Assembly (NCBI RefSeq): GCF_031260455.1
Contig: NZ_JAIRJW010000037.1
Direction: 5' to 3' (one strand)
Origin: Fluviicola sp.
GTDB lineage: Bacteria > Bacteroidota > Bacteroidia > Flavobacteriales_D > Crocinitomicaceae
Length of the DNA stretch: 64,000 nucleotides
Shown here: positions 24,762-58,982 of the stretch, piece by piece
Layout: each line of letters opens with the position of its first letter
How positions within the stretch are numbered: the first letter of the stretch is position 1
Position numbers and translations under genes: made by a program
Notes under the pieces: model-generated
Databases searched by the model: none
Seen by the model: the letters and a program-made list of their open reading frames with translations, nothing else
Told to the model about the DNA's origin: nothing

Positions 24762-24775
24762 CTAAAATCTATACT

Positions 24776-27205
24776 TTAAATTCGATTTCTTTCTGATTCA
24801 CTTCCTTTGTTCTGCTTCCTTTGTCTTATGTACTTATTACCGAATTTATAGCTCAATGAAAAGGCAATATTTCTTGAATCATAGTAGTTGTTGGTGTAAA
24901 TAGAAAAGGTTGAAGTTCGCATGTCCGATTTTGGTGCTGAATTTTTAAATAAATCTGAAATATTTACAGATAATATTAATCGGCCCTCCAAAAACTTTTG
25001 GGTTAATCCGAAACCCAAAATATACTGGGACTTCATGTTGGAGATTGTATATATGGAGCCTAATGGACGAGCCGAAAAATTCACATCTGCTGAAAGCCCT
25101 TTAGTAATTGTAATTGAGGAATTGAAGTTACAGAATAAAATACTGGTCGAAGATGCTTCGTAAAAAGATGCCTTTGGTTTAAAAGTCGAAAACAAATACA
25201 CCAACACGATCGAATTTTCTATTTTCTCCCCCAGATTAAAAGGAATATTAACAAAACCTCCGTATTGATTAGTATTTCCAATGTTCTCTTGGGTATATAC
25301 AATATTATTCAATTCGTCTTTTGGCGCCTCCATATACGAATTAGCAAAATTGGTGTACAAAAGCCCCAAATAATAACGGTCATTTAAAACATAATCAATT
25401 TCAGCATCTGTAATATAAGTTGGTCTTAGTTGAGGATTTCCAATATTATAAATCCGATTTGTTACGTAACGTCTAAATGGATTCAGGGAAGTAAATCCTG
25501 GTCTATCTATTCGCATACCATAGGATATCGAAACCGTATGCTTACCGGAAAATTTATGCAAATAATAAATCGTCGGAAACAGATTAAAAAACACTCGTTT
25601 TGTTTGACTATTTACTATATCTTGCTTTCCAATTAGTTGAGTGTACTCTCCTCGTATTCCTAGTTGAATCTCATCTTTGTCCCATTGTTTGTTATAAGAA
25701 GTATAAAATGCTTCTGTCTGCTCAGTATATAAAAAGCGACTATTTTGAAGTGTGTCATAGAAGACATTATTATTAACCGAATGCGTCATTGAATTATTAT
25801 TATTATTTCCGATCCAGTTAAATTTAGCTCCTATACTAAAATTACCAATTTTTGAAGGCAATTGATATTCTACATCAATTACTGCAAGATTTACCAACTG
25901 CACACTTCCGCTATTCATTGATTCAAAAGAATTCAATGTATCTCCTGAATAATTTTGAAAATCAAAATTATTGGCTAAATCTGTATTATTGTAAAAATAA
26001 TTCGCGACAAAATTTAGACTTCGTCCAGTTGAATCCAATTTATACTGCCAACTAGCATTTACAGATTGAAAATATAAATCAGTAGCATTTCTTTTGAATG
26101 TATAAGCCGTCGAATCAATTATACTACCATATCCATAAATACTTTCTGCAGTAGATTGATTCTTCAGAACAGAAACACTTCCTTCCCAACTTACAGATAA
26201 ATTTGATTTACTCGAAAAGTAGTAATCTAAACCGATTGTACCTCTCATTCCTTGGGAATATCGATTGGTTATGTCATTCTGCCTGTTAAAGGACGAACTA
26301 AAGCTATAATCTGATTTTTCATTGTATCTATTTTCACCATTTCGACCGCTAAGGGTTCCATACACATTAAATTTCTTGCCTCGATGGTTAAGCATAAAGC
26401 TCAATCTTTCAGCCCCATAAAAAGCTTGTGTGTAAGATGCTGTCAGACTTCCGTTAGTACCTAGCATTCTATTCTTCTTCAACACAATATTGATTATTGC
26501 ACTTCCACTGGCATCGTACTTTGAAGGAGGGTTTGTCAATACCTCAATTCTAACGACTTCCTCGGACGGAATTGATTCTAAATACTGAACCAAATCATCT
26601 CCTTCCAAATATATTCGCTTTTCATTAATCAAAAAAGCTAATCCAGCTTTTCCAACGACCGAAATACTTCGATTTTGAACAAAAACCAATGGTGTCTTAC
26701 TCAAAAGTTCAAGTACATTCCTCCCACTTGAATTGGATGTATTCTCAATATTGAAAACTAATCTGTCAATCTTTTTCTCAATCAATGGGGGCTTACCGGT
26801 TATTTCAACGAGATTTAGCTGATGACTATTAGGATTCAGATTTAAGAGTCCTAAATCAATCGTTTTAACTTCTGCAGGTTGAATGATCCGAATAACAGTG
26901 TCCCTAATTTCAGCTTGGGTAATAAACAAGAAAACGTCAATTGGTTCAACAATCAAATTGAATTCAAATTGACCAATTGAATCTGAAAAAGCATAAAACA
27001 ACAATAATGAATCACTGACCTTTCGTAACTCTAATTTTGCAAAAACACAATCTCCTCCGTCAGCTATCTTTAACCGACCTTTAACTACGCTTTGACCATA
27101 GGAATAACCAAAAAAATTAAAAAACAGGGTAATCAGGATAGTTCTAAATAATACAATTCCGCAATTTGGAACTACTTTAGTTAAAATTAACTTCAACAAT
27201 TTCAT
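24776..27205 (-). CDS. TonB-dependent-receptor-like outer-membrane beta-barrel protein (CarboxypepD_reg-like domain, plug-like domain, barrel)
   Basis: Signal/anchor, a VVKGRLK.. Ig-like N-domain, a plug-like stretch (RNVLELLSKTPLVFV...VVRIEVLTNPPSKYDASGSAIINIVLKK), then a long Y/N/S-rich beta-strand region. It overlaps the maturase stop by 29 nt and ends 14 nt before the ABC gene start. Confidence 0.75.
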   Translation of the reverse strand: MKLLKLILTKVVPNCGIVLFRTILITLFFNFFGYSYGQSVVKGRLKIADGGDCVFAKLELRKVSDSLLLFYAFSDSIGQFEFNLIVEPIDVFLFITQAEIRDTVIRIIQPAEVKTIDLGLLNLNPNSHQLNLVEITGKPPLIEKKIDRLVFNIENTSNSSGRNVLELLSKTPLVFVQNRSISVVGKAGLAFLINEKRIYLEGDDLVQYLESIPSEEVVRIEVLTNPPSKYDASGSAIINIVLKKNRMLGTNGSLTASYTQAFYGAERLSFMLNHRGKKFNVYGTLSGRNGENRYNEKSDYSFSSSFNRQNDITNRYSQGMRGTIGLDYYFSSKSNLSVSWEGSVSVLKNQSTAESIYGYGSIIDSTAYTFKRNATDLYFQSVNASWQYKLDSTGRSLNFVANYFYNNTDLANNFDFQNYSGDTLNSFESMNSGSVQLVNLAVIDVEYQLPSKIGNFSIGAKFNWIGNNNNNSMTHSVNNNVFYDTLQNSRFLYTEQTEAFYTSYNKQWDKDEIQLGIRGEYTQLIGKQDIVNSQTKRVFFNLFPTIYYLHKFSGKHTVSISYGMRIDRPGFTSLNPFRRYVTNRIYNIGNPQLRPTYITDAEIDYVLNDRYYLGLLYTNFANSYMEAPKDELNNIVYTQENIGNTNQYGGFVNIPFNLGEKIENSIVLVYLFSTFKPKASFYEASSTSILFCNFNSSITITKGLSADVNFSARPLGSIYTISNMKSQYILGFGLTQKFLEGRLILSVNISDLFKNSAPKSDMRTSTFSIYTNNYYDSRNIAFSLSYKFGNKYIRQRKQNKGSESERNRI

Positions 27206-28487
27206 TTATTTTATTGATAATTACTTTATCCTTTTCATTTTCATCTCCAAAGAAGACACAGTATTCTCTCCCTAAATTATCTAAAGCATGTTGTGAGCAA
27301 CCGCCATTACACAAAGGCATTATTTTACACGATAGACAAGGTTTATTATTGAACTTAGAACTCATTCGTTTATCAAGGGAATCATTTTCCCAAATTATTA
27401 TACCATCATCGGTCAAATATCCCTCTCTTTTTTCAGCAAGAAAGTCACGCGCAGTACATTTGTAAACATCACTATTATAGTTAATTACCGCGCTATTTCG
27501 TTTGTCGGCATAGCAAGAATTTCTAACATTATCTGCAGAATATCCTGATTGGGCATCAATTCCGGTTTCCTTAATTTGTTGAATATTTTTTTGAGCAATT
27601 TCATCAGTATCGTCAATTTGATTATCTTGCCATACTCTATGAAAATCAAACTTTAGAAAACGATCTTTTAAATCCTGATCCAGATCCGAAAATTCATTTG
27701 CAATTTTAAAAGTGTCTTCAATATTTTTAGTAGTGTAGTTTATTCTAATATTGACAAAAAATTCATTTCGCACTAATAATTTTATATTCTTGACAATCTT
27801 TTCATAAGAGCCTTTACTTGAACTAACATAACGAATTTTGTCGTGCTTTTCCTTATATCCGTCTAATGTGATTTGTAAAGCGCTTTTTACTCCCTTTGAT
27901 CTAAAATAATCAATGAATTTATCATTAATCAAATATCCATTACTCGTAAATCCAATAAGAGGTTCGAGACTTTTCTCTTTACATTTAATTAAGTAGTAAT
28001 CAATAATCGGAATAACATCTTTTTCAAAATACAATAGTGGTTCTCCTCCGAAAAAGGACAAGTTAAAGGATTTAAGTTCTGAGGAACTCATTTGATTATC
28101 AATTAACTTATTTACCTTGTTTATCATTGTCATCCCCAACTTAGACTGAGGAATGTGAGTTTCATAACAATACCAGCATTTGAAATTACAATTCATTGTC
28201 GGATTAATAGTTAGAAAAAAATTGTCATGATTCTCATCGACAGATTTTGAAAGTTTTTTTATTTCTTCTATCTCATCAATGTTTTCATCAATAATAAATT
28301 CTTCCTGGATTAAATAATCGTATAATGTCGGGTGAATTCCTTGTAGATTATCAATACCTTCCACAATTGCAGCATTAATCAAATCCTTAACTATTTCTTC
28401 AATGAAGATAACCTTTTGGTTAATGGAATTGAAAAGGGCATAATTTTCTTGGTATTTTAATATTGTGTTGTATCTACTATACTTCAT
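27177..28487 (-). CDS. Radical SAM/SPASM-domain peptide maturase
   Basis: CX3CX2C (CNFKCWYC) at about residue 100 from the ATG at 28487. C-terminal SPASM motif CX2CX5CX3C (CLSCKIMPLCNGGC). The longest ORF (to 28601) would run into precursor 4, so the internal ATG, preceded by AGGAG, is preferred. Confidence 0.85.
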   Translation of the reverse strand: MKYSRYNTILKYQENYALFNSINQKVIFIEEIVKDLINAAIVEGIDNLQGIHPTLYDYLIQEEFIIDENIDEIEEIKKLSKSVDENHDNFFLTINPTMNCNFKCWYCYETHIPQSKLGMTMINKVNKLIDNQMSSSELKSFNLSFFGGEPLLYFEKDVIPIIDYYLIKCKEKSLEPLIGFTSNGYLINDKFIDYFRSKGVKSALQITLDGYKEKHDKIRYVSSSKGSYEKIVKNIKLLVRNEFFVNIRINYTTKNIEDTFKIANEFSDLDQDLKDRFLKFDFHRVWQDNQIDDTDEIAQKNIQQIKETGIDAQSGYSADNVRNSCYADKRNSAVINYNSDVYKCTARDFLAEKREGYLTDDGIIIWENDSLDKRMSSKFNNKPCLSCKIMPLCNGGCSQHALDNLGREYCVFFGDENEKDKVIINKINEIVEVNFN

Positions 28488-28510
28488 TTCTCCTAATCGA
28501 TAGGGTGTGG

Positions 28511-28741
28511 CTATCCGCCACACCCAGTTACACAATTCCCAGAGCAATTTGCATTTATACCCTTGGGTTTCTTTTTTGATTTTTTGTTCTTTGAACCACA
28601 ACCAACAGTAACGTTACCTCCTTTACAGTTATTAACAGATGTAGCATCAGGCTCTTGTTCAAGTAACCCAATAGAGATAGAAAATCCTCCAATTAATTCC
28701 TGACTGGAGTTATTCGATAGTTTTTCAAAATTTAATCCCAT
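28511..28741 (-). CDS. RiPP precursor peptide 4 (76 aa; GG leader, bipartite Cys-rich core with Lys-rich linker)
   Basis: MGLNFEKLSNNSSQELIGG|FS...NNCKGGNVTVGCGSKNKKSKKKPKGINANCSGNCVTGCGG. Confidence 0.75.
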   Translation of the reverse strand: MGLNFEKLSNNSSQELIGGFSISIGLLEQEPDATSVNNCKGGNVTVGCGSKNKKSKKKPKGINANCSGNCVTGCGG

Positions 28742-28810
28742 AACTTAAAATTTATTGGTTAGTGATTTTGATGCGTTAGTTGTCAAAAGTTAACAAAAGA
28801 AAAATAATAA

Positions 28811-29014
28811 TTAATTTTTCGGCCAAGAAATACTACATGAAGTCGCACAGTTAGAACCGGCAACACAATTATTCACTACTACGCATTGGCCGTCATTCTT
28901 ATTTGTACTAATTAAATTACCCTCGAACTTATTCATTACTCCAGAGAATCCGCCAACCAATTTTCCGTTGGCCACTTCTGTAATTTTTTGAAATGATTTA
29001 CTCAAGTTTTTCAT
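28811..29014 (-). CDS. RiPP precursor peptide 3 (67 aa)
   Basis: MKNLSKSFQKITEVANGKLVGG|FS...QCVVVNNCVAGSNCATSCSISWPKN. Confidence 0.8.
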   Translation of the reverse strand: MKNLSKSFQKITEVANGKLVGGFSGVMNKFEGNLISTNKNDGQCVVVNNCVAGSNCATSCSISWPKN

Positions 29015-29020
29015 AGCAGA

Positions 29021-29227
29021 TTATTTTAATTGTGTTTCACCACAACCCATTCGACAATTGGCTCCTGAACAGTTATTAGTTGTTATACAATCCTTATTCC
29101 TTTCCAAACCAATGGAATTATCCGAAAGACTTGGCTTCGCAACTTGGCTGAAGCCACCTACTAAAAGCCCAAAATCATTTATCTTTAGGCTTTCAAGATT
29201 TAATGAATTAATCTTTGAATTTTTCAT
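29021..29227 (-). CDS. RiPP precursor peptide 2 (68 aa)
   Basis: MKNSKINSLNLESLKINDFGLLVGG|FS...DCITTNNCSGANCRMGCGETQLK. It starts 9 nt after the stop of precursor 1. Confidence 0.8.
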   Translation of the reverse strand: MKNSKINSLNLESLKINDFGLLVGGFSQVAKPSLSDNSIGLERNKDCITTNNCSGANCRMGCGETQLK

Positions 29228-29236
29228 ATTAAAAAA

Positions 29237-29431
29237 TTATTCTGTGGCACCACATCCTTTAACACAATTACCACCATTGCAATTATTGACAGTTTGGCAT
29301 CTATCATTCAGCATTGAAACTGAATTGCCAGGTGCATTAAACGTAACAGAAAAGCCCCCAACCAAAAGACCTTCCTTGTCTTGATTTAACCCCTCAAATT
29401 TGGTTAAATCCATTTTCTTTGTTTTACTCAT
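29237..29431 (-). CDS. RiPP precursor peptide 1 (64 aa)
   Basis: MSKTKKMDLTKFEGLNQDKEGLLVGG|FS...RCQTVNNCNGGNCVKGCGATE. Confidence 0.8.
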   Translation of the reverse strand: MSKTKKMDLTKFEGLNQDKEGLLVGGFSVTFNAPGNSVSMLNDRCQTVNNCNGGNCVKGCGATE

Positions 29432-43920: not shown

Positions 43921-44279
43921 TCTAAAGCACCTTTTTTGAGTACATAGAAAAATCCTGTAAGGAAGAATGCCACGAAAACGACCACTGCTATCAATCCGTC
44001 AGACTGCAGGAAACGGAAATTCACTGCATACGGGTAGAAGAAAATGACTTCCACGTCAAAAAGCACGAATAAAATAGCGGTCAACAAATACCGGATAGAA
44101 ATCGGGAAACGGGCATTTCCAACTTCTTCAATACCACATTCCCAATTGGCGTTTTTCTTTTTTCCTGTCAGTTTCGGTCCGAGCATCGGAGCCACAACCA
44201 GAACCGTAATAACAAAGCCTAAAGCAACGGCTGCCTGAAGCAATATCGGTAAATAATCTTCTGCAGAAGACATAATCAC
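43908..44279 (-). CDS. nuoA: NADH-quinone oxidoreductase subunit A
   Basis: 123 aa three-TM ND3-like protein, first gene of the operon. Confidence 0.9.
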   Translation of the reverse strand: MIMSSAEDYLPILLQAAVALGFVITVLVVAPMLGPKLTGKKKNANWECGIEEVGNARFPISIRYLLTAILFVLFDVEVIFFYPYAVNFRFLQSDGLIAVVVFVAFFLTGFFYVLKKGALEWEK

Positions 44280-44472
44280 TAGTTTTAAGACTCGCGAATT
44301 TAATACAATTTAAGGTGAGAAAAGCCTGGAAAAAACTATTTAGACTTAATCTAAATTACCAGGTAATTATTTCAAAAATCTCTAAAATAGCTGGTCGATA
44401 AAAAGTGTTTACCGGGCGAAGATAAAGTTGTATTGATACAATTAAGTTTGGTTGCCCACAATACCTGTATTT

Positions 44473-44997
44473 TCATGAATTTAAAATATGAGAGTTCCCC
44501 GTTAGTATATCCAATCCGGTGTTTCTAAAATCTTTGTCATTAGTCAGCAATACGAAATTGCTCTCCTTGCAAAAGATCGCAATTGCTTTATCAACAATAT
44601 CAAGGGTATCTGGAATCAAAAGCCCTTCTATCTCCATTTTATTAAATGCTTTTCCGGTCACTTCAAAGCGGTTCAATACATTCTCTTTTAAAATCGTATA
44701 AATATCTTTTAAAGCAGATTGGCCAACTTCACTTTCCCTGAAGTCCTTAAATTTTAGAGTTGAAGCCACTTTTACATTTTCAATTCGAATAATCCTGTTA
44801 ACGACTTCTGAAACTACCAAAAAATCAACAAATAACCGATTACCTTGTTTCAAAAGTAAACGAAAAACCTTAGCGTAACTCTCTTCATATCTGTGCTGAC
44901 CTGTAGGCCAAAACAAGTAAATCAGGACATTGGCATCAATAAATACATTTCGATCTCTGATCTGACTAACCTCATTCAATCTATAATTAGCAGCCAT
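44473..44997 (-). CDS. PIN-domain nuclease
   Basis: The acidic residues sit in canonical contexts: VFIDANVLIY, VVSEVVNR, LLTNDKDF. ATG at 44997; the track ORF starts at a TTG at 45003. Confidence 0.75.
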   Translation of the reverse strand: MAANYRLNEVSQIRDRNVFIDANVLIYLFWPTGQHRYEESYAKVFRLLLKQGNRLFVDFLVVSEVVNRIIRIENVKVASTLKFKDFRESEVGQSALKDIYTILKENVLNRFEVTGKAFNKMEIEGLLIPDTLDIVDKAIAIFCKESNFVLLTNDKDFRNTGLDILTGNSHILNS

Positions 44998-45010
44998 AAG
45001 CAAGTCAGTT

Positions 45011-45388
45011 TTAGTCTAATAAATCATTAATGCTTCTTTCTAATGCATCCGGATCACTATAGAATAATTTTGCCGTATCTACAACGCGTTTTAGCGCCAC
45101 TTTCCCGGAATCAGACATATCTGTAACCTGTAAATGTTCTTTAATGTATGATTCAGAATAATCTTTATAGAGCTGACCAATTGCTGTATTCAGAAAAGCC
45201 GTTGTAAGCATTTCAATATTCACAAAGGAAAGTATGACTTTGTGGTCATTTTCAAAAGCTTTTCGAACCAATTCATATACCTTTTGACCATCTTCAGCTT
45301 CTACCCCAAATAGATCTCCAATTGTATTTACGATATTAATTGTAGTACCTTCCATAGTTTCAAAATATATCATTTTCATCAATTTCAC
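45011..45388 (-). CDS. STAS-like (DUF4325-type) small protein
   Basis: About 115-125 aa. The pattern ..VILSFVNIEMLTTAFLNTAIGQLY.. is typical of DUF4325/anti-sigma-antagonist-like proteins. Alternative ATG starts at 45379, 45373 and 45355. Confidence 0.6.
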   Translation of the reverse strand: MKLMKMIYFETMEGTTINIVNTIGDLFGVEAEDGQKVYELVRKAFENDHKVILSFVNIEMLTTAFLNTAIGQLYKDYSESYIKEHLQVTDMSDSGKVALKRVVDTAKLFYSDPDALERSINDLLD

Positions 45389-46220
45389 CGGTTAATGAAT
45401 AGTTGTTACTATCATCTGTACAGAATTGCAAATTTACAATTGTTCCCGGAAATTCTCCATTAAACATCTTTGTCATCACTCCGTCATTATCATACTGATA
45501 AAACCCATCCCGACTAATAATTTGCATTCGACCCTTATTCATATTTATGAATTCTCTCAAAACTGCTAATCCTAAACCTCCGGTTACCTGCTTGGTAGTA
45601 TTTTTGTCCTGAACAGCCCACTCAATTGCTCTATCAGCTGCCAAATGCTTTCCAAATCGTTCTAATATTTTTTGTTTGAATCCGACACCTGTATCAACGA
45701 TCGTGAATTCAATCTTATTTTTATTCGGAAAGAATTGACCACAGGTGTAAATATCTTCGGTATTACTATGGAATTGTGCATTGACGAAGATCTCATAAAT
45801 TGCCTCCACTATTTTTTCTTTTACTCCTGAAGACATAGGAGGCAAATCATAACTGTGCCCATCAATCAACTCTTCTATTACATAACGTTTAAAATATTTT
45901 CCATCTGTCGGTTTAAGACGCTGGTATTTAATTGTTGTACGATTTGTATCTTCTATCCTTTCTCTGCCATAGTATGTTAAAAAATCATTCTTAAGCAGAA
46001 TTTGCTCAATTTGCGAATGAATATAATCAAAAATCACATCATTTAGATTTTCTGAAAATTTGTCTAAAATGGCCCCAAGAGCAGCACTCATATTGGCAGC
46101 AAAAAAAACATCAAGTTCTAGTCTGATCTCATCAAACTCTTTATCTTTGTGACTATTGTAAAACGAGATTAGGTTCTGATAACTCGTAAATGTATTGTTG
46201 ACAGAAAACAGCCTATTCAT
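45360..46220 (-). CDS. GHKL-superfamily ATPase (HATPase_c, RsbW/SpoIIAB-like kinase fold)
   Basis: N-box EIFVNAQFHS, G1 box VDTGVGF, G2 box TGGLGLAVL. 286 aa with an uncharacterised N-terminal half. Confidence 0.7.
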   Translation of the reverse strand: MNRLFSVNNTFTSYQNLISFYNSHKDKEFDEIRLELDVFFAANMSAALGAILDKFSENLNDVIFDYIHSQIEQILLKNDFLTYYGRERIEDTNRTTIKYQRLKPTDGKYFKRYVIEELIDGHSYDLPPMSSGVKEKIVEAIYEIFVNAQFHSNTEDIYTCGQFFPNKNKIEFTIVDTGVGFKQKILERFGKHLAADRAIEWAVQDKNTTKQVTGGLGLAVLREFINMNKGRMQIISRDGFYQYDNDGVMTKMFNGEFPGTIVNLQFCTDDSNNYSLTGEIDENDIF

Positions 46221-46259
46221 ATCATATTTAGAATCAGATTTGCATCTGACAAGTTAAAA

Positions 46260-48998: not shown

Positions 48999-50270
48999 TT
49001 AATCAATTCTAGTGAAACCAGTATACGGATGTAACGCTTCCGGAATTTCGATTCCGTCCAGTGTCTGGTAATTTTCCATAATAGATGCCATAATCCGGGG
49101 CAATGCCAATGCCGAACCGTTCAATGTATGTGCCAGGTAATTTTTCTTATCCGCACCTTTAAAACGCAGTTTCAAACGATTTGCCTGGAATGTATCAAAG
49201 CGGGAACAAGAACTTACCTCCAGCCATTTTTCCTGTGCTGCAGAAAAAACTTCAAAGTCGTAAGTCATAGCAGAAGCGAAACCGGTATCTCCACCACATA
49301 AGCGCAAAATACGGTAATGCAAGCCTAATTTCTCCAGTAATCCTTTCACATGGTTTACCATCTCATTCAACGCCCTTTCTGTATTGCGCGGATGTTCGAT
49401 GCGTACAATTTCTACTTTGTCGAACTGATGCAAGCGGTTTAAACCCCGTACATGTGCTCCGTAACTCCCCGCCTCTCTTCTGAAACACGGTGTATAACCA
49501 GTCATTTTGACAGAGAAATTCTCATCCGAAAGAACCACATCGCGGTAAATATTCGTCAGCGGTACTTCAGCCGTTGGAATCATGTATAAATCATCTACCT
49601 GCATATGATACATCTGGCCTTCCTTATCCGGCAATTGTCCCGTTCCGTAAGCACTTGCTTCATTCACCATGTGAGGAACCACAAATTCTTCATAACCTGC
49701 TTTTTCTGCTTCTTCCAGGAAGAACCGGATCAAAGCACGTTGCAATTTTGCACCTTTCCCTTTGTAAACCGGAAAACCGGCACCTGTGATTTTCACTCCT
49801 AATTCAAAGTCTATCAAATCAAATTTCCTGGCCAATTCCCAGTGCGGAATCGCCTTGTTGTGCAATACTGCCGGTTCACCGACTATTTCAACAATTTCGT
49901 TATCCTCTTCATTTTTCCCGGAAACCACCAAAGCATTCGGAACATTCGGGATCTGGTACAACAACTGTGTGATTTCATTTTCCAGTGAGTCTACCTGCAA
50001 TTTGAGCTGCTGTTCTTCCTGTTTCAGATCAGATGTTTTAACTTTTGCTGCTTCTGCCTCCGAAGTTTTACCACTTTTGAAGAATTCACCAATTTCCTTT
50101 GCAATTTTATTCAACTCGGACGTAATTAATTCCATAGATGTTTTCGCAACACGCCATTGCTGATCTTTAGCAATAATTGCATCAATTGTTTCTGTTACAT
50201 CGATGTTGCGCTTTTTCAGTGCAGTGATAATCTCATCACGTTCAGCGCGGATTCTGGTCATTTCTAACAT
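48999..50270 (-). CDS. serS: Seryl-tRNA synthetase
   Basis: 423 aa with an N-terminal coiled-coil arm and class II motifs (..TPCFRREAGSYG.., ..LNGSALALPR..). Confidence 0.95.
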   Translation of the reverse strand: MLEMTRIRAERDEIITALKKRNIDVTETIDAIIAKDQQWRVAKTSMELITSELNKIAKEIGEFFKSGKTSEAEAAKVKTSDLKQEEQQLKLQVDSLENEITQLLYQIPNVPNALVVSGKNEEDNEIVEIVGEPAVLHNKAIPHWELARKFDLIDFELGVKITGAGFPVYKGKGAKLQRALIRFFLEEAEKAGYEEFVVPHMVNEASAYGTGQLPDKEGQMYHMQVDDLYMIPTAEVPLTNIYRDVVLSDENFSVKMTGYTPCFRREAGSYGAHVRGLNRLHQFDKVEIVRIEHPRNTERALNEMVNHVKGLLEKLGLHYRILRLCGGDTGFASAMTYDFEVFSAAQEKWLEVSSCSRFDTFQANRLKLRFKGADKKNYLAHTLNGSALALPRIMASIMENYQTLDGIEIPEALHPYTGFTRID

Positions 50271-51589: not shown

Positions 51590-53362
51590 TCAGGAAGCCA
51601 ACTGACTCAGGAGATTTTCCGCACGCAACAACAGATCTTCCGTTTCAAGGTTCTCGGTTCCGAATCCGTAACGATACTGGTCACAAGTTTCAATAATTTC
51701 TCTTAACCCCTTCGCCAATTCAGGTTTGGTATCAATTAACCGGTCAAAAGCTTTCTCACGGGATTGGAAATTACACTTTTCACATTGCTCAATACGCTGA
51801 ATAATGGCTTTCGGCATTAAAATCGCAAATGACCCCGGATCATCTAGTGCATTGGTTGTATCCCTCCAGTAATCGATTACTTCTTTTACCGGATCTGCTT
51901 TCAGATTGCTCAGGAATACCGGGCCTTTCGGCAATTCGGATTTTACAGCGGCAGAAATGCTTTCAGCCTCGTTCTTTTTGCGTTTTCTGACCATCAAAAA
52001 AACAAACAGCAATCCCAGTAAACTGGTAGGAGTTACAATCCCTACCCAAAGTCGGGTTTTCGAGTCTGATTCTGAAGAAGATTTCCTGGTAGTTGCCTGG
52101 GTATTACTGACATGAACCAGATCCGTATGTGTTCCGGGTTCCGGGTTGGATGCTACAACCGGGCTGAAGCTCTTATCCGGAATTACTTTGACCTTAAACG
52201 AATTTCCTTTGATTGTTTGATACTTTTCCTTTTCCGGATCAAAATAACTGATGGAAGGAGCCTGGAATTCCAGATTTTTTCCGTCCAATACCTGGATGTT
52301 AAAGCGATAAGTGACCGTTCCTTCTGCTCCGCCCTCGGTAAATTCAATTTCTTCTACTCTTTCCGGATCCCCGTATATGGCGCATCCTTCCGGAATAACC
52401 AGTTTCGGAGTATTCGAATTGTGAATATTTCCAACGCCTGAAACGATCAGTTCCAGGGTGAATACGTCTCCTTCTTTGATTTCACCAACAGGATTTTTCT
52501 GCGAAAGCCGGTAATCTCCCACTGCCCCAATAAAATCTTTCGGTGCATTATTCGGCAAAGGTTTCACATTGATCATTAACCCCGCAGAACGGAAACGAAT
52601 GGTTTTTGAAAAAATGGAACCGTGACATCTCACAGCCATTTCAAACGGTTTCACATGGCATTTACCCGTAGCAACCGGAATCAGCAACTGCTTGCCATAT
52701 TCGAATGCAAGCGCATCTTTTCCGTTTATTTTTGTTTGCTCCACCTCTACTTTTCCGTTCGGGAAAACGTGTTCTTCCATGGAAACATCGGCTTTAAAAT
52801 CCGAATAACCTTCCAGGTATTCAATATCCATGTAGGAAAAAACTTTCGCTTTCAGCAAAACCGGCTCTCCTTCATATATACATGTTTTTTTGCATTGGAT
52901 CAATCCGAAAACCGGGTCGTTGGAATTAATCTTGTTGTCTTCGGGAGCAGCTTCAGTGACTTTGACAGTAATTTTATTAGACCTGTAGGTTTTATTGAGG
53001 CAAGTGATGTAAGCATAAAAAGAATAAGTTCCTTCTTTCTTAAACACTCCCGACTGCTGCATGTAATAGTACGTTTTGATCTTCCCGCTCGGGTCCATTT
53101 TTTGTTCCATTCCGTGCATCACCCCAAAATCTACTTCAAATTCAACCGGGAAATCGATTTTCATAGAACCCTCCACGTTGGAAGTAATCGTAAATGTCAG
53201 ATGCTCATCCTGCTCGATTTCCTTTTTATCACAGGTCAATGCTACCACAGCTTTTTGAGCCACTGAGATCTGGCTCACCAAAGTGAACAAAACCAACAGC
53301 AGCTGCCATTGATTACCAGTCTTTACGTGCTTTCTTACCACCTGTTGTACCTTTTGAACCAT
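51590..53362 (-). CDS. batD: BatD-family (oxygen tolerance) protein
   Basis: 590 aa: signal peptide, Ig-like repeats, a single TM near residue 450 and a cytosolic tail. Its position is downstream of batC in a Bat operon. Confidence 0.75.
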   Translation of the reverse strand: MVQKVQQVVRKHVKTGNQWQLLLVLFTLVSQISVAQKAVVALTCDKKEIEQDEHLTFTITSNVEGSMKIDFPVEFEVDFGVMHGMEQKMDPSGKIKTYYYMQQSGVFKKEGTYSFYAYITCLNKTYRSNKITVKVTEAAPEDNKINSNDPVFGLIQCKKTCIYEGEPVLLKAKVFSYMDIEYLEGYSDFKADVSMEEHVFPNGKVEVEQTKINGKDALAFEYGKQLLIPVATGKCHVKPFEMAVRCHGSIFSKTIRFRSAGLMINVKPLPNNAPKDFIGAVGDYRLSQKNPVGEIKEGDVFTLELIVSGVGNIHNSNTPKLVIPEGCAIYGDPERVEEIEFTEGGAEGTVTYRFNIQVLDGKNLEFQAPSISYFDPEKEKYQTIKGNSFKVKVIPDKSFSPVVASNPEPGTHTDLVHVSNTQATTRKSSSESDSKTRLWVGIVTPTSLLGLLFVFLMVRKRKKNEAESISAAVKSELPKGPVFLSNLKADPVKEVIDYWRDTTNALDDPGSFAILMPKAIIQRIEQCEKCNFQSREKAFDRLIDTKPELAKGLREIIETCDQYRYGFGTENLETEDLLLRAENLLSQLAS

Positions 53363-54041
53363 TTATTCGTCTCTTGGTATTTAATTCCTGTTTTGCAAAT
53401 TCATCCAGTTTCCGCTCCGTTTCCTTGTCCTGCAGTTTCTGCTGATCTTTTTTCTGAGACTGGGCATTCTGATTTTGCTTGTTATCTTTCGATTGATTTT
53501 GATCTTTATCTCCTTTTTGCTGCGGATTTTTATTATTATTCTTATTCTGCTGCTGGTTCTGATTATTATTCTTTTGTTCCTTTTCTTTATCCTGCTGGTT
53601 CTGCTCTTGTTTCTTCTGCTGCTCAAGCAAGCGTTTTGCTTCCATCAGGCGTTGTCTGGCCTTTTCATTATCCGGATCCAGCCTCAGCACATCCTTGTAA
53701 GCATCCACCGCACTCTGGTAATCCTGTTGTTTCATGCAGGATTCTCCTAAACTTGTTCGGGCCCGAATCTCTTTTTCTTTTGTTTTTGCATTATTTGCCT
53801 GGCGTTCAAAACTCTCAGCGGCAGTCCTGAAGTCATTTGCACGATATGCAGTCTGACCTATTTCCTGAGACAAATCTACATCATTTGGTGCAGAACTCCC
53901 GGCTCTTTTATAATACTTTAACGCTTCTTTGTACTTCCCTTCTTTGTACAGGCGCCGGGCATGATTCAAATCTTCTTCCCAGTTTTGTCCGAAAACAGCA
54001 AAACCCCAAAAACAGCAAACAATTATCAACAATAATCTCAT
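53313..54041 (-). CDS. batC: BatC-like TPR protein with a Q/N/K-rich low-complexity tail
   Basis: Signal peptide, TPR units (YKEGKYKEALKYYKRA.., QQDYQSAVDAYKDVLRLDPDN), then about 70 aa of Q/N/K repeats. Confidence 0.75.
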   Translation of the reverse strand: MRLLLIIVCCFWGFAVFGQNWEEDLNHARRLYKEGKYKEALKYYKRAGSSAPNDVDLSQEIGQTAYRANDFRTAAESFERQANNAKTKEKEIRARTSLGESCMKQQDYQSAVDAYKDVLRLDPDNEKARQRLMEAKRLLEQQKKQEQNQQDKEKEQKNNNQNQQQNKNNNKNPQQKGDKDQNQSKDNKQNQNAQSQKKDQQKLQDKETERKLDEFAKQELNTKRRINGSKGTTGGKKARKDW

Positions 54042-55165
54042 CGTTTTTCAGGCTTTATCAGGATGGGCAAAAAGAAGTAACAGATCATACAGAACAGTGC
54101 TAAAATTGCAGGAATATAAAAATAGTTTTTATCTACATTAAATTCCACTTTCATCACCTGTTTATTCTTTGTATTCTTATAATTGGCCGCAATGTTATAA
54201 ATATTTGGAAATGCGCTGTTTGAAACTACCAGAATGCTGCCGGAAGCTGCAGCCATCCTTTCCAGAGACTTCTTATCCAGCCTGGAAACGACCGCCTGTC
54301 CGTTTTCCCGTTTGTATCCTTCCGATACGTCGTAGGGATTGTTTGGAATCAATCCTCCTTTTGCAGAACCCAAACCAAGGTACACCAACTCTATGTGTTG
54401 CTTTTTTAATTCGGTCAGTTGCTTTTTCCAGAGGTTTTCATGGTCTTCGCCATCTGTGATTACCAGGACAGCCTTCCCGGATTCCGTGTCCTTGAATTGT
54501 TCCCGGGCCAGCTCCAGCGCTCTTCCAATATTGGTTCCCTGATCTGTAATCATAGACGTTTCAATATCAGGGATAAACAGCTTAGCAGCACCGTAATCCA
54601 TTGTCAGAGGAAGCTGCGTGTAGGCATCATTGGCAAAAACCACTACTGCAATACGCTCTCCCTTTAACTGGTTCATCAACTCCCCGATGGCCTGTTTGGC
54701 GGCAGTCAGCCGACTCACCTGTCCACCTCCCATATCTTTGGTATTCATCGAATTGGAAATATCCAGGCAGATGACCAGGTCCAGCACGCGCTTTGATCCG
54801 TTTACTTTCCGGGATCCTGCAACGGGCTGTGCCATGGCAAGAACGATGAAAAAATAAGTGCTTCGCAACAAAAAGTAATGCAAAAAGGCTTTTACCGGCT
54901 CAAATTTCACCCATAACATCCGGGTAGTGCCGTAACCTGAATATTGCTGGTAAATTTTCGACTTCCAGTTCCACTGAAGCCAGGTCAGCACTCCCAATAT
55001 GGGAATAATGATCCACAACAGGAGCATCTCCGGATGAAGCAACTTCACTCCCCATCTGCCAAACGGAAGCACAACGCAGCAAATCAAGACCAGGAGCCAC
55101 CAGATTCCTTCAGAAATGAGCAAGAGCTTCACCAGATGCTGATATGTGGAGTGTTTTTTAGTCAT
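54038..55165 (-). CDS. batB: BatB-like von Willebrand factor A (VWA) membrane protein
   Basis: MIDAS motif DLVICLDISNSM, N-terminal TM helices and a C-terminal TM. ATG at 55165; the longest ORF runs to 55192. Confidence 0.8.
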   Translation of the reverse strand: MTKKHSTYQHLVKLLLISEGIWWLLVLICCVVLPFGRWGVKLLHPEMLLLWIIIPILGVLTWLQWNWKSKIYQQYSGYGTTRMLWVKFEPVKAFLHYFLLRSTYFFIVLAMAQPVAGSRKVNGSKRVLDLVICLDISNSMNTKDMGGGQVSRLTAAKQAIGELMNQLKGERIAVVVFANDAYTQLPLTMDYGAAKLFIPDIETSMITDQGTNIGRALELAREQFKDTESGKAVLVITDGEDHENLWKKQLTELKKQHIELVYLGLGSAKGGLIPNNPYDVSEGYKRENGQAVVSRLDKKSLERMAAASGSILVVSNSAFPNIYNIAANYKNTKNKQVMKVEFNVDKNYFYIPAILALFCMICYFFLPILIKPEKR

Positions 55166-56183
55166 CCAGTCTGAATTTCCATCGCTGAACACTCCATGCC
55201 GTCAGTGAAAACAGCATGCTCCAGATAAAAAACGGGAACAAAGTCAGCGGTGGTTCTGCCTCCAGGTGCTGATCTTCCATTTTTCGTTTTTCCAGCCGAT
55301 CTATTTCAGCGTAAATTTTTTCCAGCGATTTTTCATCTGTTGCCCGGAAGAATTTTCCTCCTGTCAATTTCGAGATATTTTTCAAAACAGCTTCATCAAT
55401 TTCTACCGGCAGATTCTGGTAAATCACTCCGAAAGGTGTCTGAACCGGAACTGGCGCCATTCCTTTTGCTCCCACTCCAATCGTATAAACTTTGCATTTC
55501 TTCGCTTTGGCCAGACTGGCTGCTTCCATCGGATCCGGTCCTGTATTGCTGCTTCCGTCTGTGAGCAAAATAATCACTTTGGAAGGCAGGCTGTCACTTC
55601 TGAGTCGCGTAACTGCAACCCCTAATCCACTTCCGATCGCAGTTCCAGGCTCCAGGTATCCCGGTTCGATTTCGGAAATCTGTTGCTTCAGCAGTTTGTA
55701 ATCCAGTGTTGCCGGACAAGCTGTATAAGCCTCACCTTCATAAACTACCAACCCTACGCGGTCTCCCTTCCTGGAATCCACAAATTTTCTGGCTACACGC
55801 TTCGCCACTTCCAGACGGTTCGGATCGAAATCCTGCGCCAGCATGGAGCCGGATGCATCAATTGCAAGAATAATATCGATTCCATTTTTATAATCGATTT
55901 TCGGAGGATCAACGGAAGTATTATACGGTTCGGCCAATACCAAAACGAGGCAAGCTATTGAAAATACATAAAAGGTATTGATTCCCCAGCGAACATAACG
56001 CACCCAGCCAATAGAATACGACAACTGTTCCTGCTCAGAATTCGCGTATTTCAACTGACCTGAACGGCTTTTCTGCAAATATTCCCACAGAAACAACAAT
56101 ACCGGAATCACCAGCAAAAGCCAGAGCATTTGTGGTTTGTAGAAATCATATTCCCAAAAGCAAATGTTGAAATAACGACTCAT
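55158..56183 (-). CDS. batA: BatA-like VWA membrane protein
   Basis: MIDAS motif DIILAIDASGSM, with flanking TM helices. Confidence 0.8.
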   Translation of the reverse strand: MSRYFNICFWEYDFYKPQMLWLLLVIPVLLFLWEYLQKSRSGQLKYANSEQEQLSYSIGWVRYVRWGINTFYVFSIACLVLVLAEPYNTSVDPPKIDYKNGIDIILAIDASGSMLAQDFDPNRLEVAKRVARKFVDSRKGDRVGLVVYEGEAYTACPATLDYKLLKQQISEIEPGYLEPGTAIGSGLGVAVTRLRSDSLPSKVIILLTDGSSNTGPDPMEAASLAKAKKCKVYTIGVGAKGMAPVPVQTPFGVIYQNLPVEIDEAVLKNISKLTGGKFFRATDEKSLEKIYAEIDRLEKRKMEDQHLEAEPPLTLFPFFIWSMLFSLTAWSVQRWKFRLDD

Positions 56184-57094
56184 TCCGGTATTTCCAAAGG
56201 ACTTAATTCGGTTACTATTTCTTCCAGCCGGAGCAAACTTGAGCGGATGTGAATATCATCCAACTCGGTTTTGGCAAACTTCACCATATCTGCTTCCCTA
56301 AGTAAGGTTTCGATGCGTTTGACCATAGTAAAATCCAGTTGTTTCAGTTTCAGTAGTGCAATGGTTTCCTGCGTTGTCCGTTCCATCAGGTTCAGTTCAT
56401 AACGGGAACTCAGGTACATTTTCAGAATTGATGAAAATGAGATGTAATGCGCTTTTGTTTTTCCATGTAACCAATCTTCTTTTTTTCGCAGCTGATGAAT
56501 GGTTAACAAGGTTCGTTCCCGCAAGCTCAACTCCTCTGATTTCCGGATTTTACGCCGTTTGTTCCATCGGATTGCAAGAATAACCGCAATAACAGCGATC
56601 GCGATAGCCCACCAATAATCTTTCAGCCACCTCAGGTAATCGCTTGTCGGCTCAATCGGAATTTCATCGATGCCTTCTTTTACTTTTTTCCTCACAAACC
56701 CAACGTCAAGGCTCGGAGCACGAAATGAAAAAGCAGAATCTTCCCAGCTCATCCACAAATCCGGCAGGCGATATTTCGCAGAATCCCAGGCAATGAGTGT
56801 ATAAACACCTTTCCAGTATTTGATTCCTTTCTGTGTATAATTTGTATCCCGGAAGGATACAATTTCCAGTTCAGCTCCCGGTTTCCAGAGTGTTTCTCCT
56901 TTGTGAATTTCTTCACAGCTAAAAACCCCTGTAACCGGATTATAATCAAATTTAGCAGGTTTGTTTTTGACCAGGATAATCAGCTTTGCCTTGTCACCAA
57001 CCCGTACGGAATCTTTTTTCCAGAACACATGCTTTGTCTGAGCACTGACAGCTACCAAACACCAACAGGCAAGTATGGACAGGATCCCTTTCAT
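56180..57094 (-). CDS. Hypothetical membrane protein of the Bat/MoxR operon (DUF4381-like position)
   Basis: Signal peptide and a single central TM (WWAIAIAVIAVILAI). 4-nt overlaps with both neighbours. Confidence 0.6.
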   Translation of the reverse strand: MKGILSILACWCLVAVSAQTKHVFWKKDSVRVGDKAKLIILVKNKPAKFDYNPVTGVFSCEEIHKGETLWKPGAELEIVSFRDTNYTQKGIKYWKGVYTLIAWDSAKYRLPDLWMSWEDSAFSFRAPSLDVGFVRKKVKEGIDEIPIEPTSDYLRWLKDYWWAIAIAVIAVILAIRWNKRRKIRKSEELSLRERTLLTIHQLRKKEDWLHGKTKAHYISFSSILKMYLSSRYELNLMERTTQETIALLKLKQLDFTMVKRIETLLREADMVKFAKTELDDIHIRSSLLRLEEIVTELSPLEIPE

Positions 57095-57960
57095 TTCCGG
57101 CGATTGAACAGTTGAAGCAAGGGTAAGTATACATGATCGCCAACTTCAAAAAAGGCAGCATCTATTCCCAACTGCTGAAAAAAAGTTTCGTTCTTTTCTC
57201 TTTGCTGGTGATATTTTTTTTCATAATCTCTTCTGACTACAGCCGATGAGCTGTCAATCCAGTTAGTCATATTAGTTTCAGCATTCATCCAACGCACAAA
57301 TCCCACATCCGGGAGTTTTGCTTCTCCCGGGTCGCTCACTCCAAGCACAACCAGATCATGTTTTCTTGCGGTATTCGCGAATCCTTCCTTATTCATTTCC
57401 AACTGGGAAAAATCGCTTATCACAAAGCAAATACTTCGCTGTTTGAATATATTTCGTGCATATTTCAGACCTATATCCAGGTTTGTTCCGGCAGATTTCG
57501 GTTTCAGGTTAATCAGCTTGCGAAGTAAAAAATGAGCATGTCCGAAGCCCTTTTTCGGAGGAACGTAATACTCCACTTCATCCGAGATAAAGATTGCTCC
57601 AATCTTATCATTCTTTTTTGCAGCTGAAAAAGCCAGCGTTGCAGCCAGTTCCACAGCCAGTGAAATCTTGGAATCGGATCCCTGTCCGAAATACATGGAA
57701 CCTGAAACATCGATAATGAGCAAAACCGTTAATTCACGCTCTTCTTCAAAGATTTTTACGAAAGGTTCGCGAAAACGTGCCGTCACATTCCAGTCAATTG
57801 TCCGGACATCATCTCCCACCTGGTAAGAGCGTACTTCACTGAATGACATACCACGGCCCTTGAACGCCGACTGGTATTGCCCGGCAAAGACTTGTTCCGT
57901 CATACCACGAGTCTGAAGCTCAATGGTACGAATGCGTTTCAGTAAAGAGTCCTGATCCAT
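57091..57960 (-). CDS. DUF58-family protein (MoxR-associated VWA-like)
   Basis: Characteristic ..YQVGDDVRTIDWNVTAR.. motif immediately downstream of MoxR. Confidence 0.85.
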   Translation of the reverse strand: MDQDSLLKRIRTIELQTRGMTEQVFAGQYQSAFKGRGMSFSEVRSYQVGDDVRTIDWNVTARFREPFVKIFEEERELTVLLIIDVSGSMYFGQGSDSKISLAVELAATLAFSAAKKNDKIGAIFISDEVEYYVPPKKGFGHAHFLLRKLINLKPKSAGTNLDIGLKYARNIFKQRSICFVISDFSQLEMNKEGFANTARKHDLVVLGVSDPGEAKLPDVGFVRWMNAETNMTNWIDSSSAVVRRDYEKKYHQQREKNETFFQQLGIDAAFFEVGDHVYLPLLQLFNRRK

Positions 57961-57968
57961 GGGTATGT

Positions 57969-58982
57969 TTATGGAACTTCTATTCGCTGTAATAAACGTT
58001 CTATGATTTGTTCCGGCTTCACTCCTTCAGCTTCCGCTTCATAGTTCAGCCCGATCCGGTGGCGCAGTACATCCATCGCAACGGTACGTACGTCATCCGG
58101 GATAACGAAGCCACGCTGCTCCAAGAAAGCATTTGCCTTAGCTGCCAGTGCCAGGTTGATGGATGCTCTCGGCGATGCTCCGTAAAACAAATATTTCGAT
58201 ATTTCAGAAACGCCAGCAGTTGCGGGATTTCGTGTTGCATCTACAATATCTACGATATACCGTTCTACTTTTTCATCGAGATAAATAGAACGCGTTAATT
58301 TTTTTCCTTTGATCAGGTCGTCCGGATGCATCACATGCGATACTTTTTCAAGTCCTTCCGGGCGCACATTGGATCTGAGAATCAATTGTTCTTCCTGTTT
58401 GGACGGATATCCCATGAATACTTTCAGCATGAAACGGTCTATCTGGGCCTCCGGCAACGGGTACGTTCCCTCTTGTTCAATCGGATTTTGCGTTGCCAGC
58501 ACCAGAAACGGCTTCGGTAATGCATAGGTCGAATCTCCGATCGTAACCTGGCGTTCCTGCATGGCTTCCAGAAGCGCGGCCTGCACTTTTGCAGGAGCAC
58601 GGTTAATCTCATCAGCCAGTACAAAGTTGGCAAAGATAGGGCCTTTTTTAACAGCAAACTGTTCTGATTTCTGCTGGTAAATCAACGTTCCGGTAACGTC
58701 CGCAGGTAATAAGTCGGGAGTAAACTGAATGCGTGAAAAATCTGCCGATACCGCACTGGAAAGGGTTCGGATAGCCAATGTCTTCGCCAATCCGGGAACT
58801 CCTTCCAGGAGCACATGCCCGTCAGCCAATAATGCAATCAGCAAACTGCGAACCATGTTCTCCTGTCCGACAATTACTTTTCCGATTTCACGACGCAATA
58901 AATCATATTTCAGCCCTTCCGCTTTGATTTCATTTGCAATGACCTGCAACTGCTCGGAAGGAGATAAATCAGGTATACCCAT
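57969..58982 (-). CDS. moxR: MoxR-family AAA+ ATPase
   Basis: Walker A LLEGVPGLAKT, Walker B FVLADEINRA. 337 aa. Confidence 0.9.
   Translation of the reverse strand: MGIPDLSPSEQLQVIANEIKAEGLKYDLLRREIGKVIVGQENMVRSLLIALLADGHVLLEGVPGLAKTLAIRTLSSAVSADFSRIQFTPDLLPADVTGTLIYQQKSEQFAVKKGPIFANFVLADEINRAPAKVQAALLEAMQERQVTIGDSTYALPKPFLVLATQNPIEQEGTYPLPEAQIDRFMLKVFMGYPSKQEEQLILRSNVRPEGLEKVSHVMHPDDLIKGKKLTRSIYLDEKVERYIVDIVDATRNPATAGVSEISKYLFYGASPRASINLALAAKANAFLEQRGFVIPDDVRTVAMDVLRHRIGLNYEAEAEGVKPEQIIERLLQRIEVP

Follow-up and report, generated by a model that had tools for sequence, protein, structure and literature searches.

Genes at the locus

Between a tetratricopeptide repeat (TPR) gene and the nuo operon of a Fluviicola-like genome lie three genes, at positions 44473-46220 of the stretch of DNA analysed here (64,000 nucleotides (nt) of Fluviicola sp. 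contig NZ_JAIRJW010000037.1; hereafter the window), which very probably form an intact, horizontally acquired vapK-vapS-vapC (VapKSC) operon. VapKSC was described from Escherichia sp. E4736 by Chambers, Rani, Min, Villa and Corbett (EMBO J 2026; PMC13373217; bioRxiv February 2026), with the VapS2-VapC2 complex deposited as PDB 9z7o, and the Fluviicola copy is an uncatalogued but ordinary member of this already known system. An initial annotation, made from the raw sequence by a model, had described three co-directional minus-strand open reading frames (ORFs) spanning 44473-46220, with spacers of 39 nt between the TPR stop and the ATPase ATG, 13 nt ahead of the PIN ATG and 193 nt between the PIN stop and nuoA; the three ORFs are there and the spacers are exact to the nucleotide. 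The genes are as follows.

45360..46220, minus strand: vapK, a 286-amino-acid (aa) kinase in which an alpha/beta domain (residues 1-125) precedes a GHKL domain of the Bergerat fold
45011..45355, minus strand: vapS, a 114-aa STAS-like (DUF4325) antitoxin with a C-terminal helix region; candidate phospho-acceptor T52
44473..44997, minus strand: vapC, a 174-aa PIN-domain nuclease toxin; alternative start TTG 45003

The TPR stop is at 46260 and the nuoA start at 44279. As listed, the DUF4325 ORF runs from a GTG at 45388 to the stop at 45011 (125 aa), with in-frame starts up to 45388; because the 115-aa DUF4325 homologues begin 4 nt past the ATPase stop in homologous operons, we favour ATG 45355 as the vapS start. 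The kinase and DUF4325 genes are then separated by 4 nt (they would overlap if the upstream starts were used), and this 4-nt gap and the 13 nt between the DUF4325 stop and the PIN ATG are the same spacings as in homologous operons. All three proteins match Pfam families above the curated cut-offs (HATPase_c, E=2.4e-7; DUF4325, E=4.2e-15; PIN, E=2.8e-9), in agreement with the GHKL, DUF4325/STAS-like and PIN assignments first proposed, and every motif quoted in their support was found (EIFVNAQFHS, VDTGVGF and GGLGLAVL in the ATPase; FIDANVL, SEVVN and TNDKDF in the PIN protein). By comparison with homologues, vapK, vapS and vapC are all full length, and their catalytic motifs are intact.

Identification as a VapKSC operon

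PADLOC-DB v2.0.0 gave no match for VapK or VapS, and for the PIN protein only PDC-M07B, at a non-significant E=0.018; NCBIfam assigned none of the module's proteins to a family, and its VapC models scored far below their cut-offs against the window PIN. Literature searches on STAS-like proteins in phage defence, on HATPase_c, PIN and STAS together in a defence system, and on PF14213 found nothing, and those on DUF4325 returned only the PIN.4 note (2017) and a table of Francisella prophages. What identified the module was a search of PDB sequences with family profiles, which led to the chain names of 9z7o and from these to the paper of Chambers et al. The DUF4325 family profile matched 9z7o chain A (‘Escherichia VapS’) with E=1e-22, and the window VapS itself matched this chain by phmmer (E=2e-14; window residues 18-110 against chain residues 32-123); the PIN family profile matched chain C (‘Escherichia VapC’) with E=3.6e-9 across residues 3-172, essentially the full length. 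The initial annotation had not recognised the module as a named defence system. Consistent with this, PADLOC v2.0 holds no model for it; it now bears the name VapKSC, published in 2026.

The published catalogue of VapKSC operons (Dataset EV3 of PMC13373217) includes the Deinococcus gobiensis genome and Marinilabilia salmonicolor, and Fluviicola is not listed in it. When plasmids were searched by tblastn, the sole relative was on D. gobiensis I-0 plasmid P5, where an ATP-binding / STAS-like / PIN operon is annotated; the window VapK, VapS and VapC matched this operon with E=1e-38, 7e-20 and 3e-12, respectively, most of each length being aligned, and VapK was 31% identical to its D. gobiensis counterpart across residues 32-286. 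With the VapK of a different M. salmonicolor strain, JCM 21150, the window VapK shares 72% identity.

The order K-S-C, a GHKL kinase with an N-terminal alpha/beta domain, a STAS protein with a C-terminal helix and a PIN protein are all shared with the Escherichia sp. E4736 operon, as are the Ser/Thr acceptor and the catalytic Asp. The window operon differs in being a distant orthologue in a Bacteroidota host, known here from sequence alone.

Antitoxin, toxin and proposed mechanism

In the crystal structure of the Escherichia VapS2-VapC2 complex, the STAS domain of VapS binds VapC and the C-terminal helix of VapS approaches the active site (PMC13373217). Escherichia VapC is toxic, and the D28A substitution abolishes this toxicity; VapS rescues cells from VapC, a rescue that is lost upon deletion of its C-terminal region or with the phosphomimetic S48E, which also loses VapC binding; and carrying the operon protects against phage Bas42 by about 2 logs, an effect lost with VapC D28A, VapS S48A or VapK F54A (PMC13373217). 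In the window, VapS position 52 lies in the motif L-T-[TS]-A-F-L-N and is Ser or Thr in 11/11 diverse homologues and in D. gobiensis. The window T52 aligns with residue 66 of chain 9z7o_A, which is Escherichia S48 once a presumed tag of 18 residues is subtracted (the chain has 134 residues, the native protein 116). The acidic residues D21, E64, D133, D136, D154 and D156 of the window VapC are invariant among 13 homologues of 23-61% identity, and D21 aligns with the catalytic D28 of Escherichia VapC.

By homology with the Escherichia system, in an unstressed cell the STAS domain of VapS would hold VapC in a VapS2-VapC2 complex, with the C-terminal helix beside the active site blocking the substrate. 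Phage infection or DNA damage would give rise to single-stranded DNA (ssDNA), and ssDNA in a groove between the N-terminal and GHKL domains of VapK would switch the kinase on; VapK so activated would phosphorylate the conserved Ser/Thr of VapS and thereby release the nuclease. Phosphorylated VapS would dissociate, and free VapC would cleave RNA, stopping growth and aborting the infection. On the same homology, the Fluviicola copy would be active, and the RNA target of VapC is probably tRNA or rRNA. That a kinase/STAS pair takes the place of a classical antitoxin in gating the PIN nuclease, in a toxin-antitoxin-like or abortive-infection system, as the initial annotation had supposed, is essentially the published VapKSC model; its reading of the pair as a partner switch does not carry over in the classical sense, because here the STAS protein itself is the inhibitor, and sequestration of the effector by the kinase is no part of the model.

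The kinase and its proposed trigger

Across 77 homologues of VapK, the N box (E143/N147/H151), the G1 box (D176, G178) and the G2 box (G214, G215, G217) are invariant, and so too are W201, T209 and the motifs CGQ and FPGT. A confident AlphaFold2 model of the window VapK (predicted local distance difference test score, pLDDT, 89.6; predicted template modelling score, pTM, 0.88) shows a C-terminal Bergerat fold preceded by a 125-residue N-terminal (beta-alpha)n domain. For the Bergerat fold, Foldseek against the PDB found the best geometric match in SpoIIAB, an anti-sigma kinase (1til_E; template modelling (TM) score normalised to the target, 0.66; root-mean-square deviation (rmsd) 4.1 Å). Ranked by E-value, HSP90 N-domains stand at the top of the Foldseek list for whole VapK; they superpose poorly (rmsd 12-16 Å), and SpoIIAB was preferred. 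For the isolated N-terminal domain, the top Foldseek matches were to ClpP, with poor TM scores, and were taken as noise.

Position 39 of the window VapK is aromatic in 77/77 homologues (W in 69, F in 8); the window protein and its closest relatives have Phe there, and the others Trp. This position is a plausible counterpart of the ssDNA-stacking residues F54 of Escherichia VapK and W68 of CapK.

The same architecture could respond to the energy state of the cell, namely the ATP/ADP ratio as in RsbW and SpoIIAB, rather than to ssDNA; the ratio would decide between phosphorylation of VapS by VapK and mere binding to it, so that ATP depletion in an infected cell would control the release of VapC. 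The best geometric match of the kinase domain is indeed SpoIIAB in ADP/ATP-bound complexes, and activation by ssDNA has been shown biochemically for CapK only, whereas for VapK it is based on modelling with AlphaFold 3 and on a single mutant, F54A, examined in vivo (PMC13373217). However, since in the published model it is phosphorylation that releases the toxin, ATP depletion would keep VapC inhibited, which is the wrong direction for abortive infection, and the invariant aromatic at position 39 fits a conserved stacking residue such as CapK W68 or VapK F54. We therefore consider an energy-state trigger improbable and favour ssDNA as the signal.

Distribution and genomic contexts of the triad

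Whether GHKL, DUF4325 and PIN genes co-occur in other genomes had been proposed in advance as a test of the module, and the triad was present in every related locus examined, about 20 distinct loci in all, from Bacteroidota, Acidobacteriota, Elusimicrobiota, Desulfuromonadales, a Roseobacteraceae metagenome-assembled genome (MAG) and a Deinococcus plasmid. A word-indexed search returned 691 relatives of the ATPase, the best 120 of 691 being 66-72% identical and coming from several Bacteroidota orders and an alphaproteobacterial MAG. An exhaustive search yielded 930 VapK-like representatives at E<=1e-10, mostly of about 290 aa and matched end to end; these are representatives of 50%-identity clusters and include relatives outside triads. 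At the genome loci of close ATPase relatives, DUF4325 and PIN genes come next and in the same order in 12/12 cases, with flanks that are otherwise unrelated, and both order and spacing are preserved at L015-L020, L023, L027-L029 and L067. The triad is kept at 37-44% VapK identity in Pyrinomonadaceae, Terriglobia, Elusimicrobiota, Desulfuromonadales and others. In one lineage the order is permuted to vapS-vapC-vapK (L021 6879-8876, L022 6879-8876), beside Fic, HicB-like and NTase_sub_bind genes; a linkage that survives such rearrangement argues that it is functional rather than merely inherited.

Several of these loci are found in defence islands or within type I restriction-modification (R-M) operons. 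The Marinilabilia triad adjoins a type I R-M system, DUF3800, a PD-(D/E)xK gene and an integrase; that of Algoriphagus is found among SoFic, an Eco57I-like enzyme, AbiEi/AbiEii and large helicases; and in a Saprospiraceae genome and an Elusimicrobiota MAG the triad separates hsdS from hsdR within a type I R-M operon (L018 4927-14913; L027 742-8563). L018 has, in addition, two more PIN-family genes between hsdM and hsdS. The D. gobiensis plasmid operon has a separate helix-turn-helix (HTH) regulator gene upstream (L067 2360-2821), and the Desulfuromonadales operon is preceded by a gene for a 1546-aa protein with no Pfam domain on record (L029 2193-6833).

Two streptococcal prophages, Javan172 (L025 3375-4653) and phiGBSVK-D (L026 2563-3752), encode an ATPase resembling VapK (about 300 aa, 29% identity) and then a DUF4325 protein (99-114 aa), without a PIN gene. 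The pairs occupy typical accessory (moron) sites, either between the integrase and the repressor module or between the lysis genes and paratox, and PHROGs families of unknown function match them (phrog_3364, phrog_9989). In one vapKSC clade (L023 7249-8001; L024 6436-7188), a 250-aa ORF ends exactly at the vapK start; it has weak similarity to PLD-like / NgoFVII-like nucleases (E=0.004-0.007) and may, to judge from its position and sequence, be a fourth component.

Within Bacteroidota, the VapKSC clade shows about 70% VapK identity across several orders. Its members in the window and the closest relatives have Phe where position 39 is otherwise Trp. The clade could depart from the Escherichia mechanism in trigger or in target RNA, and VapK/VapS could be a portable sensor able to act without VapC, the latter because the pair occurs by itself in streptococcal prophages and is joined by a PLD-like gene in one clade; taken together, we regard this as rather unlikely, though with some chance of being right. 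Were the portable-sensor idea true, VapK/VapS would serve several effectors as a general inhibitor module gated by the kinase.

The published catalogue numbers 289 vapKSC operons, of which 36% have a PADLOC match within 10 kb and 64% do not (PMC13373217). The family observations reported here go slightly beyond that paper: the family is well above 289 operons in size, its gene order can be permuted, it can be sited inside type I R-M operons, VapC-less VapK/VapS pairs occur in streptococcal prophages, and one clade has a possible extra PLD-like gene. The added biological value is modest, consisting of an uncatalogued Fluviicola copy and these observations; the reading of raw sequence did recover a real defence system together with its logic, matching the experimentally supported 2026 model. 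A VapK orthologue from another host might be soluble, unlike that of Escherichia, and so be useful for biochemistry.

Insertion at the TPR-nuoA junction

The initial annotation had described the module as inserted upstream of nuo, and this is supported by relatives that have the TPR-nuoA junction without the triad. The following features mark the boundaries.

46221..46259, minus strand: upstream spacer of 39 nt, A+T-rich, from the TPR stop to the vapK start; upstream junction of the insertion and presumed promoter site
44368..44472, minus strand: non-conserved part of the vapC-nuoA spacer; downstream junction of the insertion, on the basis of alignment with the relatives' nuoA-upstream regions
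44280..44367, minus strand: resident nuoA upstream/leader, outside the module and marking its boundary; a remainder of the ancestral spacer between TPR and nuoA

Scanning metagenomes with the TPR protein gave 37 related loci, 0 of them with the triad. In relatives at 68-69% TPR identity, nuoA lies 144-759 nt past the TPR orthologue and the triad is absent, and it is on these relatives that the empty-site argument is based. About 90 nt upstream of nuoA are conserved between the window and the triad-less loci L037, L038 and L042, including the blocks TAATTTAGA and GTATTAAATTCGCGGGTCTTAAAA; positions 44368-44472 show no conservation in the alignment with the relatives' nuoA-upstream regions. The conserved region is probably a nuo promoter or leader, and its presence in triad-less relatives bounds the acquired segment to about 44368-46259. 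The G+C content of the module is 0.339, against 0.43-0.47 in the flanking genes and a window mean of 0.411; the dip is real, with the TPR gene at 0.43 and not at the about 48% first stated. Together, the triad-less TPR-nuoA relatives, the conserved leader and the lower G+C content support a horizontal insertion.

The closest TPR relatives (83-95% identity) were considered as an empty site and set aside, as their TPR gene is followed by one for a secreted protein of about 340 aa and not by nuoA. At these loci (L030 5876-9872, L034 5894-9890), the secreted protein has a C-terminal coiled coil, and about 2.5 kb with few long ORFs comes after it. That another gene follows TPR in the closest relatives indicates that the TPR-nuoA junction is variable in this group.

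At the module we found no repeats, integrase or other trace of the insertion route, and its edges show no terminator-like hairpin, credible promoter, target-site duplication, terminal inverted repeats or flanking direct or inverted repeats. The 39-nt spacer upstream of vapK has a G+C content of 0.256; no promoter was established in it, a sigma-70 scan being uninformative for Bacteroidota. Rfam gave zero matches to the window, the nuoA leader included.

A number of observations count against the identification as an acquired, ssDNA-triggered VapKSC operon. The window PIN searched by itself against PDB sequences with phmmer gave no match at E<=0.01, so that its link to 9z7o runs through the family profile only. 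The low G+C content of the module is not extreme, as about 12% of equal-length stretches of the window are as low or lower. No other defence gene was found within about 10 kb in the window, the neighbours being nuo, TPR, seryl-tRNA synthetase and Bat/MoxR genes. Chambers et al. name the N-terminal domain of VapK a STAS domain (PMC13373217); for the window protein, this domain showed marginal similarity to the STAS protein TM1442 in profile searches (E=0.05-0.23), an hhalign comparison with DUF4325 reached E=0.34, and Foldseek with the isolated domain returned nothing significant and no STAS protein within the top 50. The equivalence of position 39 to F54 of Escherichia VapK is a putative one, based on the homologues of the window protein. 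In Escherichia itself, neither the phosphorylation of VapS by VapK nor the activation of VapK by ssDNA was shown biochemically, VapK being insoluble, and both were inferred from CapK and AlphaFold 3 models (PMC13373217).

The operon might be thought a decayed or silent relic, acquired but no longer functional in its host, or its adjacency fortuitous: it is solitary among housekeeping genes with no defence genes beside it, and neither a promoter nor a terminator can be assigned. This is highly improbable in our view. The three ORFs are full length with catalytic and phospho-acceptor residues intact, the 4-nt and 13-nt spacings match those of homologous operons, and a solitary copy, as in the window, is what 64% of the published operons are, these likewise having no PADLOC match within 10 kb. 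We thus retain the reading of an intact VapKSC operon.

Relation to other kinase-STAS and toxin-antitoxin systems

CapK and CapS, found with CBASS, Bub and Thoeris operons, are likewise a GHKL kinase and a STAS substrate with a conserved phospho-serine (PMC13373217). CapS is a STAS-winged-helix repressor, and activation of CapK by ssDNA leads to de-repression of the immune operons (PMC13373217). Unlike the window proteins, in which no HTH or winged-HTH match was found, CapK has an extra N-terminal HTH and CapS a winged helix, and the window pair has a PIN toxin as its partner, with the nuo operon next in line, rather than a downstream immune operon. This homology in domain logic, the placement of CapK/CapS upstream of the operons that they control and the position of the module directly upstream of nuoA would all suit a transcriptional switch, in which the kinase/STAS pair regulates transcription of the PIN gene or of nuo with no direct inhibition of the nuclease. 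We give almost no credence to such a switch, as the 114-aa STAS protein has neither a winged helix nor another DNA-binding domain, the kinase lacks the N-terminal HTH of CapK, and VapS is homologous to the VapC-binding Escherichia VapS of the solved complex; moreover, the triad stands beside unrelated genes at every other locus, and nuoA retains its own conserved leader. Direct inhibition of VapC by VapS remains the preferred reading.

As in type II VapBC systems, the window has a PIN-domain VapC with the canonical acidic residues, encoded directly after a small neutralising protein. It differs from them in that the antitoxin has a STAS fold with no DNA-binding domain, where VapB would have one of the AbrB, RHH, HTH or Phd type, and in that a third gene encodes a kinase; in addition, VapS in the Escherichia structure leaves the active-site Mg2+ in place (PMC13373217), and release in VapKSC is proposed to occur by phosphorylation, not by proteolysis. 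With the SpoIIAB-SpoIIAA and RsbW-RsbV pairs the module shares a GHKL Ser/Thr kinase (predicted here) and a STAS target residue at the N-terminus of a helix. Unlike SpoIIAB and RsbW, the window kinase bears a further domain of 125 residues at its N-terminus, and it is the STAS protein rather than the kinase that holds the effector. SpoIIAB and RsbW are anti-sigma factors that act on a cognate sigma factor, usually a product of the same operon; no sigma factor gene was found in the module, its flanks or any related locus examined.

The pairing of a PIN gene with DUF4325 had been noticed before: the PIN.4 subfamily was reported as transcriptionally coupled to DUF4325 genes (Matelska, Steczkiewicz, Ginalski, NAR 2017; PMC5499597). 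That gene pair is the one seen here, recorded by bioinformatics nine years ahead of VapKSC in a paper from which the kinase and the mechanism are absent; our comparison of PIN.4 with the window PIN is by gene pairing and not by subfamily assignment.

Other features of the window

The surroundings of the module are housekeeping genes. Downstream is the nuo operon, and upstream, beyond the TPR gene, lie seryl-tRNA synthetase (48999-50270) and a Bat/MoxR-type operon (51590-58982, minus strand) encoding a MoxR AAA ATPase, a DUF58 protein, an unassigned 304-aa ORF, two VWA proteins, a TPR protein and BatD.

Elsewhere in the window, positions 22566-29431 (minus strand; G+C about 0.305) hold a putative cluster for a ribosomally synthesised and post-translationally modified peptide (RiPP) or bacteriocin, with a C39-peptidase ABC exporter (22566-24761), an outer-membrane beta-barrel protein (24776-27205) and a radical SAM enzyme (27177-28601). 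Four tandem ORFs of 64-76 aa (28511-28741, 28811-29014, 29021-29227 and 29237-29431) complete the cluster; because they have in common an L[VI]GGFS motif and Cys-rich C-termini of the form NNCxGxNCxxGCG, they are likely to encode precursor peptides.

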